64,000 bases of DNA from Bacteroidota bacterium (GTDB lineage: Bacteria > Bacteroidota > Bacteroidia > Palsa-948): positions 6,477 through 70,476 of the forward strand of contig JACQAL010000002.1 in the NCBI GenBank assembly GCA_016195025.1. The letters are read 5' to 3'. This document shows, in pieces, positions 3,048-59,003 of this stretch. The notes below the pieces were generated by a model, which was not told the DNA's origin, searched no databases, and was given only the letters and a program-made list of their open reading frames with translations. Within the stretch, counting starts at the first letter, position 1. The number at the start of each line of letters is the position of its first letter. A program made the translations under genes and the position numbers.

Positions 3048-4025
3048 GTGAAAGTTCTCCAATTCCGCGAAGCCCTCCGCGAAGCCATGAGCGAAGAAAT
3101 GCGTGCCGATGAGCGCGTGTTCCTCATGGGCGAAGAAGTGGCGGAGTACAATGGCGCTTATAAAGTGAGCCAGGGAATGCTTGCCGAGTTTGGCGCAAAG
3201 CGCGTGGTGGATACTCCCATTGCCGAACTCGGTTTCACCGGCATTGGCGTGGGTGCTGCCATGAACGGCTTGCGCCCCATCATCGAGTTCATGACATTTA
3301 ATTTTTCACTCGTTGCCATTGACCAGGTAATCAACAACGCGAGCAAATTATATAACATGAGCGGAGGGCAGTTTAATGTTCCCATTGTTTTCAGAGGACC
3401 CACGGCTTCTGCCGGGCAGTTGGCGGCACAGCACTCCAATGCGTTTGACAATTGGTATGCAAACTGCGCGGGGCTGAAAGTGATTGTGCCTTCCAATCCT
3501 GCCGATGCGAAAGGTTTATTGAAGAGCGCCATCCGCGATGATGACCCGGTGATTTTTATGGAAAGCGAACAGATGTATGGCGACAAAGGCGAAGTTCCCG
3601 AAGGAGAATACGTGATTCCGATTGGCGTTGCCGATATAAAAAGAGAAGGAAGCGATGTTACCATTGTGAGTTTCGGAAAAATTATTAAGGAAGCGTATAA
3701 AGCCGCGGACGAACTTGCCAGAGAAAATATTTCTGCCGAAGTGATTGACCTGCGCACCATCCGCCCGATTGATTATGCAGCGGTGGTGGAGTCGGTGAAG
3801 AAAACCAACCGCCTCGTGATTCTTGAAGAAGCATGGCCCCTCGGAAATATTTCCACAGAGATTACTTACCACATTCAGAAGAATGCGTTTGATTATTTAG
3901 ATGCTCCCGTCCGCAGGGTGAACTGCGAAGATGTTCCGCTCTCCTATTCCGCTCCGTTTGTGGAAGCCGCCCTGCCGAACATGAAAAAAGTGATTCGCGC
4001 GGTGAAGGAGGTAATGTATCTCTGA
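3048..4025 (+). CDS. pdhB: Pyruvate (2-oxoacid) dehydrogenase E1 component, beta subunit (transketolase-like), with a GTG start
   Basis: 325 aa beginning 'MKVLQFREALREAMSEEMRADERVFLMGEEVAEYNGAYKVSQGMLAEFG...'. This is the canonical E1-beta N-terminus, with the C-terminal transketolase domain 'VTIVSFGK...DLRTIRPID'. Confidence 0.9.
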   Translation: MKVLQFREALREAMSEEMRADERVFLMGEEVAEYNGAYKVSQGMLAEFGAKRVVDTPIAELGFTGIGVGAAMNGLRPIIEFMTFNFSLVAIDQVINNASKLYNMSGGQFNVPIVFRGPTASAGQLAAQHSNAFDNWYANCAGLKVIVPSNPADAKGLLKSAIRDDDPVIFMESEQMYGDKGEVPEGEYVIPIGVADIKREGSDVTIVSFGKIIKEAYKAADELARENISAEVIDLRTIRPIDYAAVVESVKKTNRLVILEEAWPLGNISTEITYHIQKNAFDYLDAPVRRVNCEDVPLSYSAPFVEAALPNMKKVIRAVKEVMYL

Positions 4026-4031
4026 TTTATT

Positions 4032-4068
4032 CCCCCTTAATGAAGGGGGCAATCCCGCTTTGCGGGAT
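4032..4068 (+). terminator. Two tandem GC-rich hairpins downstream of pdhB
   Basis: 'CCCCCTTaatgAAGGGGG' (4032-4049) and 'ATCCCGCtttGCGGGAT' (4052-4068), 7 nt after the stop. No strong T-tract follows, which is common in Bacteroidota. Confidence 0.45.
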
Positions 4069-4223
4069 GGGGGATGTCTTCTCATATCTTGTTAGCAACT
4101 TTCATCTTCCCTTCGGAAGAGAAAAATTTACATTCGCGTAAAATATTTCAGCACTCGTTCGTTACGTGCTCGTTTCTACAACCCGAAATTTGAACCATTA
4201 ACCCTAAACTTTCCAACTCTTCC

Positions 4224-11125: not shown

Positions 11126-13510
11126 GTGAAAAATATTTTTCTATCAGGCAAGAAAAAAAAGATTTTGTTTGGAATCAGTTTTGTTTTTTTCATTTGGTTT
11201 ATTTTCTGCCTTCCCCGCCATCTTTTCAAAGATCCAACCTGCACTGTTCTTGAAGACAGGAACGGAGTTTTAATTGCTGCGCGCATTGCAGAGGATGAGC
11301 AGTGGAGATTTCCGTACAATGAAAAAGTTCCGGAGAAATTTCGGAAAGCAATCACGGAGTTCGAGGATAAATATTTTGAATATCATCCCGGAATAAATCC
11401 TGTTTCCATTCTTCGCGCGCTGTGGCAGGATGTTACTCACGGAAAAATTATCAGCGGAGGAAGTACGCTCAGCATGCAAGCCATCCGCATTTCAAGAAAA
11501 GGAAAAGGCAGAAACATTTTTGAAAAATTTATTGAAATGATTCTCGCCACGCGCGCGGAAATTTCCTATTCCAAAAAGACAATTCTCGCTTTGTATTCTT
11601 CCAACGCTCCGTTTGGCGGAAATGTGGTTGGATTGGATGCTGCTTCGTGGAGATATTTCGGAAGAAGTCCTGAAAAACTTTCATGGGCGGAAACGGCTAC
11701 ACTTGCAGTTCTTCCGAATGCGCCTTCATTAATTTATCCCGGCAAAAATCACAACAAACTTTTAGCAAAAAGAAATCGTTTACTTGACGCGCTCTGGAAA
11801 GATGGTGAAATAGATTCGCTCACTTGCATTCTTTCCAAATCCGAGCCGCTTCCCGAAAAACCTTTTCCGCTTCCGCAGCTTTCTCCTCACTTGCTCGACC
11901 GCGCTTTCAAAGAAGGAATGAGCGGACAAAAAGTTTTGACTGTGCTTGATGGAACTTTACAGGAACGCGTTGCCGATATAATTGAAAAACATTCTCTCAA
12001 ACTCCGCGGCAACCAAATCTGGAATGCAGCAGCAATTGTGGCTGATGTGGAAACTGGAAATGTGCTGGCTTACGTTGGAAATACTTCTCCCTCTCCTGTG
12101 GGAGAGGGACGAGGTGAGAGCAAAGATGAACACGGAAACTCTGTTGATGTTATAATGTCGCAAAGAAGCACCGGCAGCATTCTCAAACCTTTTCTTTATT
12201 CCGCAATGCTCAGCGAAGGAGAAATTCTTCCGAACACATTGGTGCCTGATATTCCCACGCAGATTGGAGATTTCTCTCCGCAGAATTATTATCTCACGTA
12301 CGATGGCGCAGTTCCTGCAAGAAGAGCGCTTGCGCGTTCGCTCAATGTTCCCGCAGTGAAAATGCTTCAGCAGTTTGGCGTGGACCGGTTTCATTACTTT
12401 CTGAAAAAACTTGGAATCACCACGCTGAATTTTTCTGCCGACCATTACGGGCTTTCATTAATCCTTGGTGGCGCAGAAGCAAAACTCTGGGACTTAGTCG
12501 GAATTTACGCAAGCATGGCGCGCACGCTGAATCATTCCAATCGCGAAGAAAATTTTTCCGAAGATTTATTTCCATTGAATTATTTTTCTTCCACATCATC
12601 CATCATCCATAAACCCTCAACCATTCCACTTGATCCCGCTTCCGTTTATTTAACCTTCGAAGCCATGTCGGAAGTGAACCGCCCGGATATGGATGCGAGT
12701 TGGCAACTCTTTTCTTCTTCTTCAAAGATTGCGTGGAAGACAGGAACAAGTTTTGGCTATCGCGATGGCTGGGCAATAGGGATCACTCCGAAATATGTGG
12801 TAGGAGTTTGGGTCGGCAACGCGAACGGAGAAGGACGACCGAACCTTACAGGAATCGGAACTGCCGCGCCAATTCTTTTTGAAGTTTTTGGTTTGCTGAA
12901 ATCGAATGAATGGTTCAGGATGCCGAAAGATGAGATGAAAGAAATTTTTGTCTGCAAGGAAAGCGGCTACCGCGCAACGGAACTTTGCGAAAATAAAATA
13001 AAAACTTTTGTGCAATCAGCAGGATTGAAAACTCCTCCGTGCCCGTTTCATCGCTTAGTTCATTTAGATGCTTCGGGAAAATTTCGTGTGAACAGCGAGT
13101 GCGAAGATGTTTCAAAGATGATTCACAAATCCTGGTTTGTGCTTCCGCCTTCGATGGAATATTATTACAAAACAAAAAATCCGACTTACAGCGAACTTCC
13201 TCCTTTCCGAAGTGATTGTAAAAGTTCTTCCGCAAGTTCAATGGAATTAATTTATCCGAAGCAGGACACAAAAATTTTTGTTCCGGTTGAACTGGATGAA
13301 TCTTCCGGCAAAACAGTTTTCAAAGTTGCTCATCGTAAACCGGAGACAACTATTTACTGGCATTTGGATGATAATTATATCGGCAGTACAAAGGGAATTC
13401 ACCAACTCGGATTTTCTCCCGAGCCGGGAAGACATAAACTTACTCTTGTGGATGAATTTGGCGAAACAATTTCGCAGCAGTTTGAAATTATCGGTAAGAA
13501 AACTAAGTAG
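11126..13510 (+). CDS. pbpC: Penicillin-binding protein 1C (transglycosylase plus transpeptidase)
   Basis: 794 aa with an N-terminal TM segment. GT51 motifs are present ('RFPYNEKVPEKFRKAITEFEDKYFEYHPGINPVSILRA...GGSTLSMQ'), and there is a transpeptidase 'SxxK'-type region ('STGSILKPFLY'). It is co-located with a2m. Confidence 0.85.
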   Translation: MKNIFLSGKKKKILFGISFVFFIWFIFCLPRHLFKDPTCTVLEDRNGVLIAARIAEDEQWRFPYNEKVPEKFRKAITEFEDKYFEYHPGINPVSILRALWQDVTHGKIISGGSTLSMQAIRISRKGKGRNIFEKFIEMILATRAEISYSKKTILALYSSNAPFGGNVVGLDAASWRYFGRSPEKLSWAETATLAVLPNAPSLIYPGKNHNKLLAKRNRLLDALWKDGEIDSLTCILSKSEPLPEKPFPLPQLSPHLLDRAFKEGMSGQKVLTVLDGTLQERVADIIEKHSLKLRGNQIWNAAAIVADVETGNVLAYVGNTSPSPVGEGRGESKDEHGNSVDVIMSQRSTGSILKPFLYSAMLSEGEILPNTLVPDIPTQIGDFSPQNYYLTYDGAVPARRALARSLNVPAVKMLQQFGVDRFHYFLKKLGITTLNFSADHYGLSLILGGAEAKLWDLVGIYASMARTLNHSNREENFSEDLFPLNYFSSTSSIIHKPSTIPLDPASVYLTFEAMSEVNRPDMDASWQLFSSSSKIAWKTGTSFGYRDGWAIGITPKYVVGVWVGNANGEGRPNLTGIGTAAPILFEVFGLLKSNEWFRMPKDEMKEIFVCKESGYRATELCENKIKTFVQSAGLKTPPCPFHRLVHLDASGKFRVNSECEDVSKMIHKSWFVLPPSMEYYYKTKNPTYSELPPFRSDCKSSSASSMELIYPKQDTKIFVPVELDESSGKTVFKVAHRKPETTIYWHLDDNYIGSTKGIHQLGFSPEPGRHKLTLVDEFGETISQQFEIIGKKTK

Positions 13511-28384: not shown

Positions 28385-29566
28385 ATGCCGGTAGAAATAA
28401 AAGAAGTTAAAACGAAGAGTGACGCAAAGCAGTTTGTAAATCTTCCGTTTGAAATTTACAAAGGCAATGCCTTTTGGGTGCCGCCTTTGAAGGAAGGAGA
28501 AATGAAATCGCTTTTTCCCGAGACAAATCCCGCCTTTGATTTCTGCAAAGCAAAATTCTGGCTTGCGTTTAAGAATAAGAAATGCGTTGGAAGAATTGGC
28601 GCCATCATTAACGAAGCGTACAATAAAAAAACCGGAGAGAAGTTCGCGCGCTTTTCACGGCTGGAATTCTTTGATGACGAACCCCCCCCCCACTCCCCGA
28701 AGGGGGGAACACGGGAGAGTGGATTTCCTGATTTCCCCCTTCGGGGGACAGAGGGGGCTTTGCTTTCCACTGCCGAAAACTGGGCGAAAGAGAATAATTG
28801 CATAGGAATTCACGGGCCGCTTGGCTTTGCCAACCTCGATACTCAGGGTTTGCTGGTGGAAGGTTTTGAGCATTTGCAGGCGGTGGGTTCGGTTTATCAT
28901 CACGATTATTATCACAAGCACTTGGAAAAACTGGGCTATGAAAAAGAAATTGACTGGGTGGAGTTTCGTTTAACGCTGGGGCAGCAGGCGGTGGAAAAAG
29001 CAAACCGCGGTGCCGCGCTCATTCAGAAAAGATACGGCATTGAAGTTCTTCATTTCAAAAAGATGGACGAACTTCTTCCGCATTCCGACACTATTTTTAA
29101 AATACTGAACGATGCTTTCAGCGAACTTCCGTATGTAACGGAGTTTTCTGAAAGGATGATGGAGTTCTACAAAGAAAAATATATCAAACTTCTCAATCCC
29201 GAATTTGTGAAGATGGTAAAACTAAAAGGCGAGTTGGTTGGTTTTGTAATCGGGCTTCCTTCTTTATCCCATGCGCTGCAAAAAGCAAAGGGAAAACTTT
29301 TTCCTTTGGGGTTTCTTCACCTTTTAAAAGCGCGCAAGGGCGGAGAAGTGGTGGAGCAGTTGCTTACCGGAGTGAAAAAAGAAGTGATGTCAACCGGTGC
29401 GGGAGTTATTCTGATGGCTGAACTGCAAAAAGAAATGCTGAAGAAGGGAATGAAATATATTGAGACCACAGGCATTTTTGAAACCAACCAGAATGCAATT
29501 TCCAACTGGAAAAACTACGAGCATATTCAGCATAAAAGAAAGCGGATTTACCGCAAGATGTTTTAG
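28385..29566 (+). CDS. Acyl-CoA N-acyltransferase (GNAT-fold)-like protein of unknown specificity, carrying an in-frame GC-rich insert
   Basis: 393 aa, matching a Bacteroidota family of roughly 370 aa hypothetical GNAT-like proteins. Residues about 98-125 ('DDEPPPHSPKGGTRESGFPDFPLRGTEGA') are encoded by a GC-rich palindromic element. Confidence 0.45.
   Translation: MPVEIKEVKTKSDAKQFVNLPFEIYKGNAFWVPPLKEGEMKSLFPETNPAFDFCKAKFWLAFKNKKCVGRIGAIINEAYNKKTGEKFARFSRLEFFDDEPPPHSPKGGTRESGFPDFPLRGTEGALLSTAENWAKENNCIGIHGPLGFANLDTQGLLVEGFEHLQAVGSVYHHDYYHKHLEKLGYEKEIDWVEFRLTLGQQAVEKANRGAALIQKRYGIEVLHFKKMDELLPHSDTIFKILNDAFSELPYVTEFSERMMEFYKEKYIKLLNPEFVKMVKLKGELVGFVIGLPSLSHALQKAKGKLFPLGFLHLLKARKGGEVVEQLLTGVKKEVMSTGAGVILMAELQKEMLKKGMKYIETTGIFETNQNAISNWKNYEHIQHKRKRIYRKMF
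28682..28758 (+). repeat. GC-rich double-hairpin element sitting in-frame inside the GNAT-like ORF; includes a C10 homopolymer
   Basis: A C x 10 run at 28682-28691 is followed by 'CCCCgaaGGGGGG' (28695-28707) and 'CCCCCttcGGGGG' (28735-28747). The local GC is far above the roughly 40% background. It translates without stops. Confidence 0.6.
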
Positions 29567-37135: not shown

Positions 37136-37230
37136 AGTGAAAATAGTTAGTTTGGTTTTAAAAGGGATGTAAAGGTAGAAATCTCCTAATCAAAACCAAA
37201 ATTTAGGTAAACTTTTTTTTACACTTAGAA

Positions 37231-37280
37231 CTCACCCCTAACCCCTCTCTTTCTGAAAGAGAGGGGAATTTAAGGGGAGA
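37231..37280. repeat. Intergenic GC-rich palindromic hairpin element, in a terminator position for the 37282-37731 gene
   Basis: 'CCCCTCTCTttctgaaAGAGAGGGG' has a 9 bp stem (37242-37266). It is flanked by 'cacccctaa...ttaaggggag'. The 'CTCTCCCC/GGGGAGAG' stem is shared with the holA insert. Confidence 0.55.
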
Positions 37281-37281
37281 G

Positions 37282-37731
37282 TTATTTGTACTCAGGAAAA
37301 TCTTTTAGAAATAAATGCTTTCCCTGTTCATAGTTCATTTCGCAGCAATAATGTTTCAAGCCGTTTGTTACCGCCAAAAATTTTGTTCTGAGTTTATTCG
37401 ATATATTGTAAACGGCAACCTGATTAAAAGTTTCCTGAGAAATTTTTACATCGGGTTTTTTGCATTCCACAATCATCCACACATTTCCTTTCCGGTTGTG
37501 AATTTTTATGTCGCTTCGCTTTTGAAGTTTGTTGTACTTCAATCCTGTTTCAACGGCAATAAGCGAAGCAGGATATTTTTTTTCTTCAATTAAATACTGA
37601 ATAAAATTCTGGCGCACCCATTCTTCGGGTGTGAGAGCGACAAACTTTTTGCGAATCGCATCAAAGATTTGATTTCCTTTTTCACCTTGTCGAATTCGAA
37701 AAGAATATTCGGGAAGATTTAATTTTAACAT
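37282..37731 (-). CDS. Stand-alone protein resembling the type I restriction enzyme HsdR N-terminal domain
   Basis: 149 aa. 'EEWVRQNFIQYLIEEKKYPASLIAVETGLKYNKLQKRSDIKIHNRKGNVWMIVECKKP' fits the HSDR_N fold pattern (E...R.DI...P...IE.K), which is common as a solo roughly 150 aa protein in Bacteroidota. Confidence 0.6.
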   Translation of the reverse strand: MLKLNLPEYSFRIRQGEKGNQIFDAIRKKFVALTPEEWVRQNFIQYLIEEKKYPASLIAVETGLKYNKLQKRSDIKIHNRKGNVWMIVECKKPDVKISQETFNQVAVYNISNKLRTKFLAVTNGLKHYCCEMNYEQGKHLFLKDFPEYK

Positions 37732-37829: not shown

Positions 37830-38927
37830 ATGGATTTTGACAAAATAATATCCGACCTCAAGAACAAAGTTTACCATCCCGTTTATTTTTTAATGGGCGA
37901 GGAGCCGTTCTTTATTGATGAAGTTTCAAATTACATAGAGAAAAATATTCTGGATGATTCCGAAAAAGAATTCAACCAGACAGTTTTATACGGAGGCGAG
38001 ACAAACATTCTGCAGGTCATCGGCGAAGCCAAGAGTTATCCCATGATGAGCAATTACCGCGTGGTGATTATCAAGGAAGCGCAGAACATGAAAGACCTTG
38101 TGCCGAAGGAAAAATCAGACCCCTCTCCATCTCTCCCCAAAGGGGAGAGGGTTGAGCGCGCAAACTCCTCCCCTTCGGGGAGGTCGGGTGGGGTTGTTCA
38201 TCCGCTAGAAAATTATCTCGACAATCCCCAAAAGACAACCATTCTTGTTTTCTGCCATAAGTACAAAACCATTGACATGCGCACAGGGTTCGCAAAAAAT
38301 CTTTCCAAGCGCGCAGTGGTTTTGAAATCGGATACGCTTTACGATTACAAAGTGCCGAAGTGGATTGAAGAATTTATAGCGGATAAAAAATATTCCATTG
38401 AGCCGCGTGCGAGCCAACTGCTCACGGAATTTCTTGGAAATGATTTGAGCAAGATTGCCAACGAACTTGAAAAACTTTTCTTAAACATTCCTGAGAAAAG
38501 CAAAATTACTTCCGACCACATTCAAAAATACATCGGCATCAGCAAGGAGTACAACAATTTTGAATTGCAGGATGCCATTGGGAAAAAAGATTCGCTGAAA
38601 GCAAACCGCATCATCAATTATTTTTCTGCCAATACAAAGGATAATCCCATGGTGGTAACGGTTGCTTCGCTGGCAGGGTATTTCAGCAAGATGCTGCTGT
38701 ATCATATGGTAAAAGGAAAACCGCAGAATGAAATTGCAGCAACTCTCAAAGTGCCTCCGTTTTTTGTGAAGGATTATGCATCGGCTTCAAATAATTATCC
38801 TCCCGGAAAAATTTTCAGCGCCATTTCTCTCCTCCGCGAATACGATATGAAATCAAAGGGCTATGAAAATTCAAACATAGATGAAGGAGAACTGATGAAA
38901 GAAATGGTGTATAAAATAATGCATTGA
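37830..38927 (+). CDS. holA: DNA polymerase III delta subunit, carrying an in-frame GC-rich insert
   Basis: 365 aa. 'VYHPVYFLMGEEPFFIDEVSNYIEKNIL...VLYGGETNILQVIGEAKSYPMMSNYRVVIIKEAQNMKD' is the delta-subunit N-terminal clamp-loader fold. Residues about 95-125 ('SDPSPSLPKGERVERANSSPSGRSGGVVHP') are the inserted element. Confidence 0.8.
   Translation: MDFDKIISDLKNKVYHPVYFLMGEEPFFIDEVSNYIEKNILDDSEKEFNQTVLYGGETNILQVIGEAKSYPMMSNYRVVIIKEAQNMKDLVPKEKSDPSPSLPKGERVERANSSPSGRSGGVVHPLENYLDNPQKTTILVFCHKYKTIDMRTGFAKNLSKRAVVLKSDTLYDYKVPKWIEEFIADKKYSIEPRASQLLTEFLGNDLSKIANELEKLFLNIPEKSKITSDHIQKYIGISKEYNNFELQDAIGKKDSLKANRIINYFSANTKDNPMVVTVASLAGYFSKMLLYHMVKGKPQNEIAATLKVPPFFVKDYASASNNYPPGKIFSAISLLREYDMKSKGYENSNIDEGELMKEMVYKIMH
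38120..38183 (+). repeat. GC-rich double-hairpin element sitting in-frame inside holA
   Basis: 'CTCTCCCCaaaGGGGAGAG' (38131-38149) and 'CCTCCCCttcGGGGAGG' (38167-38183), with 'cccctctcc' also at 38120-38128. There is no stop codon. Confidence 0.6.
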
Positions 38928-56503: not shown

Positions 56504-57024
56504 GGTATTTGGCTTTACGAAGTTAATTTATGTGAGTGTGTTGAACAGAACATCTTTTTTGTTTAATGACAGGTCTGAGTTTTTCTATACAAGTTATCCT
56601 GGAATTCTAATTTTTATGCCGCTCAATGCCGGAATGCTGAAGTGCGGTGCAAAAATATAAAATAAAAACCACACATTGAGAGGATTTCCAAGGGTATTTA
56701 TGCACACTTTTTAAGAATCTTTGATTGCTGTTTTATACAAGACGCAATAGCGGAAAAAAGGTTGCCTTTGTGGAGAACTAATATTTTATACCAAAACAAC
56801 TCAGGTTTCAGGAATGTTCAGGAAGAATGGAATGATGGAAGATTGTCCCGAAGGGACTTCTTCGGAGGAAGATTGGCTGTTTCCCAACATTCCATTATTC
56901 CAACCTTCCAAATAATTTTCGGAAACCTGACTCTGCCTTCGGTATAGATTATGGTTTATGCTATGGTGGTTTTTTGCAGTTTTCACACTTATTTTCATAC
57001 TTTCTTCATGGAAATGCTCAGTAG

Positions 57025-57129
57025 GAGCACTCCTCCGGAGCGCAGGAGCACTCCTCCGCTCGTGAGGAACACTCCTCCGCTCGTGAGGAACACTCCTCCG
57101 CTCGTGAGGAACACTCCTCCGCTCGTGAG
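57025..57129. repeat. Tandem 21 bp repeat x 5 in the 680 bp gap upstream of the SprB-repeat genes
   Basis: Copy 1 is 'GAGCACTCCTCCGGAGCGCAG' (diverged). Copy 2 is 'GAGCACTCCTCCGCTCGTGAG'. Copies 3 to 5 are 'GAACACTCCTCCGCTCGTGAG', then 'GACACGCC'. Confidence 0.85.
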
Positions 57130-57185
57130 GACACGCCAAATCGTTTGAGAATTCTTCTCAAACGGAGTAAGAGGTATTTCAGGAG

Positions 57186-59003
57186 TTAATTTTCAAGCAT
57201 TAATTGCCGGATGTATTTCACCGGAGCGCTGCCATAACTGAGAAACTTCTCATTGAACTCTTTCAGGTTGAATTTCTCTCCAAGTTTTTTCTTCATCTCT
57301 TCCCTTAGTTCATAAATTTCGGTGAAGCCGGTGAAGTAAGAATCCAACTGAACTTGCGTGAGGGAAACCCGCTTCCATTTATTTTCGGCTTCCTGTTTTT
57401 GCTGGAAAGCATCTTCCACCAGAAATTTGATTGCATCTTCTTTGCTCATTCCGCGAACATGCACGCTGTAATCCAAAATGGTGTTGCATACAGAGCGCAA
57501 ATGCCATTTATAATACATCAGCCACATTTCAAGTGAATCGGGTCCTGCGCCAAAACCGTTTTCAAGCATGAGGCGTTCTGAATAAACCGCCCATCCTTCA
57601 ATCATTGCTCCGTTGCCGAATAAACTTTTCACCCTACTGGGCGATTGATTGCTGTAAATCAATTGCGCGTAATGCCCCGGAATGGCTTCGTGAATGGAAA
57701 GTATTTGCAGGATGTAATGATTGTATTCACGCAGATAACTTTCGGCTTCTTCTTTTGAATAATGAGCCAGCGAACCAACGTTGTAATAAGAATTTCCCTC
57801 TTTGTCATACGGACCGGGTGAAGACATGGAAGCGCCCGCAACTCCTGCCATGTAAGCAGGTTCTTTACGAACCACCAATGGTTTTGCAGGATCCATGTAT
57901 AATAGATTTTTGTCGCTCACGAATTTTGTAAGCATGGGAATTTGTTTTTCTATTTCGGTTTGAAAATCTCCGGGCTTCACATGCTTTTTAGAAATTTCGT
58001 CTATGAGCATTTTAACTTCCGATTTTGTGAAACCACTCAGTCGGATATTGGGAAAATAGTTGTGAAAAATCTTTTTAGTAATGCCCAGCATTTCTTTTTG
58101 AATCTCGTCCTTGCGCTGAACGGCTTTATTGTAAATTTCTTCGGCAGTAAAATGCGATTGGATATCGTACATAAATTTCTTCTCGTATAAATCTTTTCCT
58201 ATTCTGAAAGAACGCGCTTCAAATCCCCCTGCTTCGCTTTCCCCCTTTGAAAAGGGGGACTTAGGGGGATTCAACTTCGAGCGCAAATCTTTCAGCCAGG
58301 AAACATAATCGTCAATGACTTTCACAAAATATTTAATCTGCATTTCGATTATCTGAATTTCGTGTTCATCCATTTTGCATTTCGCCAGCGAATCCATCAT
58401 CATTCCCGTAAAAACTTCTTCTCCTCCTTTGTTTTGCTGAATCGCCAAATCGGTATGTTCAATGGTTGGATTCTTAATCATCTTTTTCGCATTTTCATAA
58501 TATGCTTTAATAGGTTTCATGCGCTGAGAAAGCGCGCGGAGTTTTTCTTCGTTCGGTTCATTTTTATTCTGAAGAATATCTGCAAAGGTTGAACTCACAT
58601 TATACGAAGCAGGATTCCATTCATATTCACGGAATTCATTTACATTAAAAATAATTCCGTTCAGCATGTTATCGAGAATGTGAAAATCTGTTTTGTTGGA
58701 AGAAGAAAGTTTTGTGATGTCCATTTTTTTCAGCGCTTCCAGCTTTTCATTTGCAAAAGCAATTTCTTTTTGATGAAACGCCTCATCGGTCACAACGAGA
58801 ACACTGTCATATTTATGATATCCTTGTGATGAAGCCCATCCGGGGTAAAGTTTCCATAAATCCTCTATGAAGTTGGCACTGAATTTTGAAAAAGAAGAAT
58901 CTGCATCTGGCGGGTTGATGAGTTGCCGGGTTGCAGAGGGGTTATTTTCACAGGAGAAAAATAGCAAGCCCGTGATGAAGAACAGAAAAATTATTTTTTT
59001 CAT
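57186..59003 (-). CDS. DUF885-family lipoprotein (putative HExxxGH metallopeptidase-like), carrying an in-frame GC-rich insert
   Basis: 605 aa with a lipoprotein signal 'LLFFSCENN'. It carries the 'SIHEAIPGHYAQ' motif characteristic of DUF885. The inserted element encodes 'KLNPPKSPFSKGESEAGGFE'. Confidence 0.65.
   Translation of the reverse strand: MKKIIFLFFITGLLFFSCENNPSATRQLINPPDADSSFSKFSANFIEDLWKLYPGWASSQGYHKYDSVLVVTDEAFHQKEIAFANEKLEALKKMDITKLSSSNKTDFHILDNMLNGIIFNVNEFREYEWNPASYNVSSTFADILQNKNEPNEEKLRALSQRMKPIKAYYENAKKMIKNPTIEHTDLAIQQNKGGEEVFTGMMMDSLAKCKMDEHEIQIIEMQIKYFVKVIDDYVSWLKDLRSKLNPPKSPFSKGESEAGGFEARSFRIGKDLYEKKFMYDIQSHFTAEEIYNKAVQRKDEIQKEMLGITKKIFHNYFPNIRLSGFTKSEVKMLIDEISKKHVKPGDFQTEIEKQIPMLTKFVSDKNLLYMDPAKPLVVRKEPAYMAGVAGASMSSPGPYDKEGNSYYNVGSLAHYSKEEAESYLREYNHYILQILSIHEAIPGHYAQLIYSNQSPSRVKSLFGNGAMIEGWAVYSERLMLENGFGAGPDSLEMWLMYYKWHLRSVCNTILDYSVHVRGMSKEDAIKFLVEDAFQQKQEAENKWKRVSLTQVQLDSYFTGFTEIYELREEMKKKLGEKFNLKEFNEKFLSYGSAPVKYIRQLMLEN
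58222..58271. repeat. Nested GC-rich palindromic element sitting in-frame inside the DUF885 ORF
   Basis: The outer arms are 'AATCCCCCT' (58222-58230) and 'AGGGGGATT' (58263-58271). The inner hairpin is 'CCCCCTTTgaAAAGGGGG' (58241-58258). Confidence 0.6.

Follow-up and report, generated by a model that had tools for sequence, protein, structure and literature searches.

A nested palindrome within a Bacteroidota DUF885 gene as a candidate copy of a widespread hairpin repeat associated with DUF559 nuclease genes

In a 64,000-nucleotide (nt) stretch of a Bacteroidota genome (GenBank assembly GCA_016195025.1, contig JACQAL010000002.1, positions 6,477 to 70,476; hereafter the window), a 50-nt nested palindrome lies at 58222..58271, in frame within a gene of the DUF885 family. 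Our preferred reading, to which we give a probability of about 0.7, is that the palindrome is a solo copy of a tiny, horizontally widespread, GC-rich selfish hairpin repeat, similar to repetitive extragenic palindromic (REP) sequences and to miniature inverted-repeat transposable elements (MITEs), that it is lodged in a permissive protein loop, and that DUF559 proteins, a family of putative nucleases, drive the spread of the repeat.

Results

Structure of the palindrome

An earlier note on the window had described 9-bp outer arms enclosing an inner hairpin, and the sequence reads exactly as claimed: AATCCCCCT gcttcgctt TCCCCCTTT ga AAAGGGGGA ctt AGGGGGATT, with both the outer and the inner stem perfect over 9 bp. 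The outer left arm AATCCCCCT (58222..58230) pairs with 58263-58271 and is followed by the spacer GCTTCGCTT (58231..58239), whose coding strand, AAGCGAAGC, includes GCGAAGC; d(GCGAAGC) forms an unusually stable DNA mini-hairpin. Then come the inner hairpin TCCCCCTTT ga AAAGGGGGA (58240..58259), with a 9-bp stem and a 2-nt loop, and a CTT spacer with the outer right arm AGGGGGATT (58260..58271). Writing Y for pyrimidine arms and R for purine arms, the whole element has the coding-strand layout Y2 - nnn - Y1 - loop - R1 - spacer - R2, referred to here as a doublet, in which the inner hairpin and the last segment make up a unit U (Y1-loop-R1-nnn-R2).

Shuffles lead one to expect 0.00 copies of the full 50-mer and 0.08 of the 18-nt inner hairpin, and the window has one of each. 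Folded as coding-strand RNA, the palindrome reaches -37.7 kcal/mol (z = -4.1), a stability attained by 0 of 200 shuffles, while the DNA fold gives z = -3.4. It went unreported in a general repeat scan with a minimum length of 12, because its arms are only 9 bp long. An Rfam scan of the window region returned no credible match, the hairpin being covered by no family. Nor does the site resemble an intrinsic terminator: it was not called in a terminator scan, it lies in the middle of an open reading frame (ORF), and its tail is ATTC/ATTTGAA rather than a T-run. Independent confirmation came from a Logan assembly of run SRR12113410, in which the 50-mer and its flanks are the same (297 of 297 aligned bases identical), making an assembly artefact unlikely.

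An additional loop in the DUF885 protein

The host gene (57186..59003, minus strand) encodes 605 amino acids with a full-length match to Pfam DUF885 (E 5e-93). This ORF bears out the in-frame placement on the minus strand that the earlier note had given, and the translation proposed there, KLNPPKSPFSKGESEAGGFEARSFRIGK, is correct. The note further held that the element was inserted before the conserved ARSFRIGKDLYEKKF, a claim supported by an alignment of 35 orthologues (56-80% identity, the nearest at 78%) and by a gap in a solved homologue. The alignment was also the check by which the note would have had its claim refuted, and 0 orthologues carry an equivalent sequence at the site. Indeed, 32 of the 35 have 4-5 residues between L244 and A263 (L-KPET-ARSF or L-SKGEG-ARSF) against 18 in the window protein (N245-E262), so that 13-14 residues, or about 14 codons, are extra. 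The codons for N245-E262 (NPPKSPFSKGESEAGGFE; 58218..58271, minus strand) thus specify an extra protein loop, as seen in the alignment, in the solved homologue 3U24 (E 7e-185), which has a 14-residue gap at this position, and in an AlphaFold model. In this model, whose mean predicted local distance difference test (pLDDT) score is 87.6, the extra residues lie between helices 213-243 and 269-281, and residues 251-260 have a mean pLDDT of 63 against at least 89 in their neighbours. The insertion keeps the frame, holds no stop codon and is translated as an excursion rich in Pro, Ser, Gly, Glu and Lys. The palindrome is an inserted and translated copy of the hairpin repeat described below. Removal of 45 nt would leave L-KFE-A, a plausible ancestor when set beside the usual L-KPET-A. 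TTCAA stands on both flanks (58218-58222 and 58270-58274) at a spacing of 52 nt, which is not a multiple of 3; it was rejected as a simple target-site duplication, as a 52-nt unit would break the frame.

Two orthologues, P0010 and P0024, bear other insertions in the same DUF885 loop. P0010 (locus L002) carries a different 42-nt palindrome (CCTGCC.../...GGCAGG), translated within LSK[AVPACLPTGKTGRQ]GEG. This palindrome, CCTGCCTGTCTGCC gaca GGCAAGACCGGCAGG, occupies the loop of an older 8-bp CCCTCTCC/GGAGAGGG hairpin, an arrangement which suggests that fresh palindromes may land within older ones. P0002 (L001) keeps only the older CCCTCTCC/GGAGAGGG hairpin in imperfect form, and the insertion of P0024 is an unrelated one of 11 residues. 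This loop has been struck more than once.

A hairpin repeat family present in many phyla

Species-representative genomes were searched with the pattern TCCCCCTTN{1,8}GGGGGACNNAGGGGG, drawn from the two C5/G5 units of the window. At least 120 stretches with at least 141 matches were returned, against a chance expectation that we estimate at about 2 in 596 Gb. The matches listed span almost the whole range of bacterial phyla: Bacteroidota, Alpha-, Beta-, Gamma- and Deltaproteobacteria, Nitrospirota, Chloroflexota, Cyanobacteria, Planctomycetota, Patescibacteria and Bacillota are represented, among others. Cultured isolates of Acinetobacter lwoffii, Pseudoxanthomonas, Crocosphaera, Nitrosomonas and Nitrotoga are among them. 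The family consensus is (AAATCCCCCT nnn) TCCCCCTTT nnnn AAAGGGGGA Cnn AGGGGGATTT, built on the unit U, in which a hairpin with a pyrimidine arm and a purine arm is extended by a further purine arm (TCCCCCTTT-loop-AAAGGGGGA-nnn-AGGGGGATTT). Singlets (U) make up the majority of copies; compact doublets with an outer left arm number 16 among the matches listed, and the arm of those in other phyla (AAATCCCCCT) is the same as in the window. The earlier note had recognised the insertion and had not foreseen that it belongs to a very widespread repeat family.

At 58240-58268 the window shows the defining motif, with TCCCCCTT(T)-loop-(A)AAGGGGGA as inner hairpin and then C-nn-AGGGGG; this agreement is circular, the pattern having come from the window itself. 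Three features outside the search pattern are also all present in the window, namely the TTT/AAA that extends the inner stem to 9 bp, ATT(T) after the last G-run and the outer arm (A)AATCCCCCT; by eye, TTT/AAA and ATTT occur in most of the 141 listed matches. A copy from Ignavibacteriaceae (L087) is identical to the window 50-mer at 45 of 50 bases, including the 9-nt spacer GCTTCGCTT, and differs only in the loop. It lies in frame inside a C-terminal sorting domain of the type IX secretion system (T9SS) (...IPLSPPLLKGESEAGGF...) and encodes the same KGESEAGGF. Similar GCTTCGC spacers occur in L052, L059 and L042. Template switching, by which the palindrome would have been made in place, fails to account for the near-identical 50-mer in Ignavibacteriaceae.

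Copies within genes are frequent, as 20 of 138 sites (~15%) have at least 60 stop-free codons on each side in one frame. Host genes confirmed by Pfam include methionyl-tRNA synthetase (MetRS; L036, L073), a topoisomerase (L077), a GH32 protein (L006), the T9SS-sorted protein (L087) and an Eco57I-type methylase (L064), among others. Among viral contigs, the U pattern was found in 41 stretches. Reference collections of plasmids and phages gave only 1 and 2 weak partial hits, respectively; either the element is rare in these mostly clinical or cultured sets, or the low-complexity filter of BLAST masks it.

Rfam searches of the family loci found no family covering the hairpin, the sole match at the gathering threshold being sRNA-Xcc1 (79 bits), 1.8 kb from an array in Pseudoxanthomonas sp. 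z9 (L084, 668-1040 and 2787-2869) in which three hairpin units are spaced by 168 nt. We take sRNA-Xcc1 to be associated with integron cassettes, and this array may lie within a cassette array. Other tandem arrays were seen in a Nitrospirales chromosome (L014, 5211-6277), where four copies stand about 275 nt apart with the hairpin inside the repeat unit, and in L121, with two hairpin-containing copies 65 nt apart. In L079 (~1465-1494), successive C-runs and G-runs around a standard unit make a four-layer nested palindrome, which suggests repeated nesting or growth outward. A text search of the literature for the motif (AAAGGGGGAC and similar) returned only unrelated eukaryotic and viral oligonucleotides, and no description of in-frame palindromic insertions of this family was found in the incomplete collection searched.

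Association with DUF559 nuclease genes

When the ORFs of 120 hairpin-selected loci were clustered and the top three clusters inspected, a single recurrent small family of about 120 amino acids emerged, which Pfam identified on representatives as DUF559 (E 1e-29 to 1e-35). A DUF559 profile search found it in 6 hairpin-selected loci and 1 viral-contig locus. In L007, L050 and L112, U stands directly upstream of the DUF559 gene and its inverse U' (Y2-nnn-Y1-loop-R1) directly downstream, while in L014 and L046 composite U'-spacer-U elements stand on either side. In L046 (Sulfuricella, 1090-1160), the conserved DUF559 N-terminus (M..QYNP.LK) stands in another reading frame than the remainder of the gene, which may reflect a pseudogene or a sequencing error.

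The association was then tested independently of the hairpin, on 80 metagenome loci picked by DUF559 protein similarity alone out of at least 600 matching stretches (577 confirmed relatives). A pyrimidine-first GC hairpin was present within 250 nt of a gene end in 62 of the 80 loci and on both sides in 37, with a density of 3.50 per kb near the DUF559 gene against 0.33 per kb in the rest of the same loci. The hairpins are oriented: of 50 nearest upstream hairpins, 35 have an extra G-arm after them and 3 an extra C-arm before them, while of 38 nearest downstream ones, 26 have an extra C-arm before them and 3 an extra G-arm after them. The distances to the gene are stereotyped as well. Upstream, the end of the hairpin lies at a median of 82 nt before query residue 1; since full-length DUF559 proteins start about 25 codons upstream of that residue, the hairpin ends some 10-25 nt before the true start codon. 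The downstream hairpin starts at a median of 14 nt past the DUF559 stop. The link between the repeat superfamily and DUF559 genes is hence both tight and directional. Remoter DUF559 genes, inspected by eye, have other pyrimidine-first hairpins (CCTCCC...GGGAGG, GCTCTCCC...GGGAGAGC), a difference that would fit co-evolution of protein and repeat. Hairpin-flanked DUF559 genes occur in other Bacteroidota (L007, L073, L204, L247 and L249). Literature searches on DUF559 together with repeats, hairpins or homing, in an incomplete collection, found neither this family nor a link of DUF559 to such repeats, and earlier descriptions may exist.

Among PDB entries, 3HRL (E 3e-33) and 3R3P (E 9e-7) are matched by the DUF559 profile, 3R3P being the catalytic domain of the homing endonuclease I-Bth0305I, and the invariant DUF559 residues E, D, H and D fit the EDxHD motif. 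I-Bth0305I acts as a homodimer and cleaves a pseudo-palindromic site (PMC3239194).

DUF559 modules inside housekeeping genes

Some DUF559 domains lie inside other genes. In L073 (1218-1800), a single ORF of 904 amino acids contains a MetRS catalytic domain split by DUF559 (residues 294-400), and the module has C7-a-C6-aaa-G6 (U') as its left border and C5-ttc-G6-actta-G6 (U) as its right border. The U'-DUF559-U layout likewise occurs in valyl-tRNA synthetase (ValRS; L204, 11662-14838, minus strand), where the gene contains a solo doublet in addition to the full module, in MetH (L247, 4190-4650) and in an RfbB-like dehydratase (L249, 2080-2510). Of the four host ORFs, those of MetRS and ValRS alone are uninterrupted; there are several frameshifts in the L247 contig, and the DUF559 part of L249 has an in-frame stop codon. 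Pfam identified only host domains and DUF559 in L073 and L204, with no intein domain, and the module flanks in both are hairpins of 20-30 nt only. Besides, the closest database relatives of the in-gene DUF559 domain also bear annotations as pieces of MetRS, MetH and GDP-mannose dehydratase; for a relative labelled leucyl-tRNA synthetase, the locus (L248) showed a free-standing DUF559 gene. Modules and solo copies of the repeat both occupy coding sequences.

Related hairpins elsewhere in the window

The earlier note had proposed a search for other copies of the motif. This was done over the 64-kb window, where one related unit and hairpins of other subtypes were found. Counting perfect, GC-rich hairpins with a stem of at least 6 bp, a loop of 2-8 nt and a purely pyrimidine 5' arm, the window holds 8 against 0.23 expected from block shuffles; purely purine-first mirror hairpins number 1 against 0.1. 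Five pyrimidine-first sites fall in ORFs, namely a PBP1C-like gene (a single hairpin, counted by two overlapping calls), a GNAT-like gene (28734-28748), holA (38131-38149 and 38167-38183) and the DUF885 gene, and two lie between genes (4032-4049, and 37242-37266, which is nested as well). In the 64 kb there are thus, besides the palindrome, one U-type unit and six other pyrimidine-first hairpins.

The second U-type unit, TCCCCC ttc GGGGGA cag AGGGGG (28734..28758), lies in the GNAT-like ORF 28385-29566 (plus strand) and adjoins C/G-run palindromes at 28682-28722. The whole region 28680-28760 consists of 10 consecutive C, followed by CCACTCCCCG...CGGGAGAGTGG and by the U-type unit TCCCCCttcGGGGGAcagAGGGGG; it encodes DDEPPPHSPKGGTRESGFPDFPLRGTEG and is probably a composite insertion. 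In holA (ORF 37830-38927), the segment 38117..38183 contains two or three pyrimidine-first hairpins encoding SDPSPSLPKGERVERANSSPSGRSGG, which include CCCCTCTCCAT CTCTCCCC aaa GGGGAGAG GG and CCTCCCC ttc GGGGAGG. The holA element at 38117-38155 is homologous, beyond the stem, to positions 4139-4180 of L001, in an unrelated Wzy_C gene of another genome. Among holA orthologues the length of this loop is hypervariable, and it often encodes SPSP...GEG, the translation of CCCTCTCC...GGAGAGGG. The hairpin TCCCTCTCC tgtg GGAGAGGGA (12086..12109), in the PBP1C-like ORF 11126-13510 (plus strand), gives SPSPVGEG where the transpeptidase domain begins and is probably a further in-frame insertion.

Between genes, a nested palindrome of a CCCCTC subtype, ACTCaCCCCT aa CCCCTCTCTTT ctg AAAGAGAGGGG aattta AGGGGaGAGT, is found at 37230..37285; the same subtype also occurs downstream of many DUF559 genes. 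A cluster of C5/G5 hairpins (4030..4076) lies just past the stop of ORF 3048-4025. Two other repeats were noted. In the intergenic DNA just 3' of the DUF885 gene there is a tandem repeat at 57044-57131 (and 57016-57131), with a 21-nt unit (AGGAACACTCCTCCGCTCGTG), 4.2 copies and 98% matches. At 56801-56930, a 130-nt nested inverted repeat has arms 56801-56814/56917-56930 around arms 56821-56838/56884-56901; it looks like another small palindromic element, with a sequence that appears unrelated to the C5/G5 family.

Discussion

Proposed origin of the palindrome

Under our preferred reading of a solo copy of a DUF559-driven selfish repeat, the putative DUF559 nuclease, as a relative of the dimeric I-Bth0305I, would recognise the palindromic repeat and drive its spread. 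The solo doublet Y2-hairpin-R2 would be either a non-autonomous copy moved in trans or a remnant left after recombination between hairpins lost the nuclease gene. The reverse event, that is, integration of a circle made of the ORF and a hairpin or homing into a doublet, is predicted to give the U'-ORF-U layout seen within genes. As for the DUF885 copy, being in frame, free of stop codons and in a loop, it would persist through tolerance and not through any benefit to the host. The association of DUF559 with the hairpins is an observed one, whereas its role in repeat mobility is inferred.

Several points weigh against this reading. The hairpins could be landing sites of DUF559 genes, or their terminators or Shine-Dalgarno sequences, rather than substrates of the nuclease, and free-standing genes are arranged U-ORF-U' whereas in-gene modules are arranged U'-ORF-U. 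The 80 DUF559 loci were the top matches to a single query subfamily and no random sample of the family, and the 64-kb window itself is without any DUF559 gene. At the DUF885 site, with even the nearest orthologue at only 78% identity, neither the exact boundary of the insertion nor a target-site duplication could be made out, and no presence/absence polymorphism between close strains or strain-level empty site was seen.

Alternative explanations

The element could have reached this loop as part of a complete hairpin-DUF559-hairpin module and be its deletion remnant, comparable to a solo long terminal repeat, never having moved in trans. Full modules within genes do have the layout Y2-hairpin-ORF-hairpin-R2, recombination between the two hairpins would yield exactly Y2-hairpin-R2, and the ValRS gene of L204 holds a full module and a solo doublet together. 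However, in the hairpin-selected sample the hairpin-only copies outnumber the DUF559-adjacent ones by over 10 to 1, and L014, L084 and L121 hold tandem arrays. Besides, the 9-nt spacer common to the window copy and L087 implies that the 50-mer itself was apparently copied as a unit. We therefore regard such a remnant as unlikely, while still a serious candidate.

We find it quite improbable that the palindrome is an ordinary REP/REPIN element (a REPIN being an inverted doublet of REPs) moved by a REP-associated tyrosine transposase (RAYT) or by a Y1 transposase of the IS200/IS605 type, with DUF559 as a merely frequent neighbour. The resemblance to the REP/REPIN-RAYT systems of Enterobacteria and Pseudomonas is real: these are GC-rich imperfect palindromes of 20-50 nt, present in many copies per genome, both singly and as inverted doublets folding into a longer hairpin, and a single small gene can lie between inverted units (PMC3116915, PMC3733652). 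Yet REPs are defined by a conserved GTAG or CGTC tetranucleotide, the head, beside the palindrome (PMC3733652), and such a head is absent from both the 50-mer and the family consensus. Unlike REPs, the present repeats have arms that are strictly pyrimidine then purine, are near-identical across phyla and are often intragenic and in frame, as are the window copy and ~15% of the sampled copies. The gene they flank encodes a PD-(D/E)XK nuclease of the DUF559 family, in 62 of 80 loci, instead of a Y1 HUH transposase. No Y1-transposase family appeared in the top three ORF clusters inspected from the 120 hairpin loci, a weak test in that RAYTs act in trans.

A benefit to the host gene, through ribosome pausing or transcript stabilisation by an mRNA structure or through a useful peptide loop, is less probable again, with only a slim chance of explaining why the hairpin arose or was kept. 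It would agree with the very stable fold, and three lineages with differing palindromes at the same loop are a possible hint of selection for structure; repeated insertion into a permissive loop is a simpler account of the latter. Against it, the same 50-mer is found in other phyla, in unrelated genes and in intergenic DNA, most orthologues and 3U24 have no structure here, and neither terminator features nor a match in Rfam were found at the site. Finally, although the source is a metagenome-assembled genome and chimeric reads can create palindromes, an assembly or sequencing artefact or a chance palindrome can be practically dismissed, given the identical independent Logan assembly, the preserved reading frame, the presence of the family in isolate genomes (Acinetobacter lwoffii, Pseudoxanthomonas, Crocosphaera, Nitrosomonas) and the failure of any shuffle to reproduce it.

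Comparison with other known elements

The in-frame behaviour recalls the Rickettsia palindromic elements (RPE), which Ogata and colleagues are said to have described in 2000 and which are reportedly 100-150 bp long and confined to Rickettsia and relatives. Like the present copy, RPE are palindromic repeats in frame within conserved protein genes and translated as an additional surface peptide. The element described here is unlike them in its size (50 nt), its host (Bacteroidota) and its sequence, so that only the in-frame behaviour is in common, and we know of no nuclease associated with RPE. Small dispersed repeats (SDR) nest within one another and within structured sequences, and no enzyme is known to be associated with them. 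SDR are likewise very small (<30 nt) mobile repeats; they are reported only in Nostocaceae (PMC5861425), and the work on them by Elhai and colleagues (2008) is cited there and in PMC3116915.

With MITEs such as Correia/NEMIS and Nezha, the family shares the character of short non-autonomous palindromic DNA that far outnumbers its autonomous partner, and inverted arms are present in the window element. The latter is much shorter (30-50 nt for the family), and the putative autonomous form would encode a nuclease and not a DDE transposase. As to the partner protein, DUF559 has the same catalytic fold and E..D..H..D residues as the EDxHD or Vsr-like homing endonucleases (I-Bth0305I, 3R3P; PMC3239194, PMC2677866), and in both cases a selfish nuclease gene lodges in conserved housekeeping genes. 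However, the known members reside in group I introns or (split) inteins and have NUMOD DNA-binding domains, whereas here a putative nuclease of 120 amino acids is flanked by hairpin repeats and apparently translated with the host protein, with no intein domain found by Pfam.

Taken further, and only tentatively, DUF559 (Vsr-like/EDxHD) nucleases and their flanking pyrimidine-purine hairpins might constitute an undescribed pan-bacterial class of selfish elements, a PD-(D/E)XK counterpart of REP-RAYT, spreading both as full modules and as hairpin-only copies of 30-50 nt and lodging in frame in conserved genes without an intron or intein.

Biological significance

For the DUF885 gene itself, the palindrome is probably harmless passenger DNA. 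At the level of the family, a near-constant repeat of 30-50 nt found from Bacteroidota to Proteobacteria, Chloroflexota and Cyanobacteria points to frequent horizontal spread or to recognition by a conserved protein. Translated hairpin insertions recur in housekeeping proteins (aminoacyl-tRNA synthetases, MetH, holA, topoisomerase), which bears on alignments, on annotation and on the evolution of protein loops. In MetRS and ValRS, a homing-endonuclease-like gene lies in an uninterrupted host frame and is apparently translated along with it, not spliced out. The tight and polar association with DUF559 suggests a testable function for a very large and uncharacterised nuclease family, and a second enzyme class, beside RAYTs, as partner of REP-like repeats. 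If the proposed class of selfish elements is real, it would assign a role to a large family now listed as a "domain of unknown function" and would account for many of the short Pro/Ser...Gly/Glu insertions in bacterial proteins.

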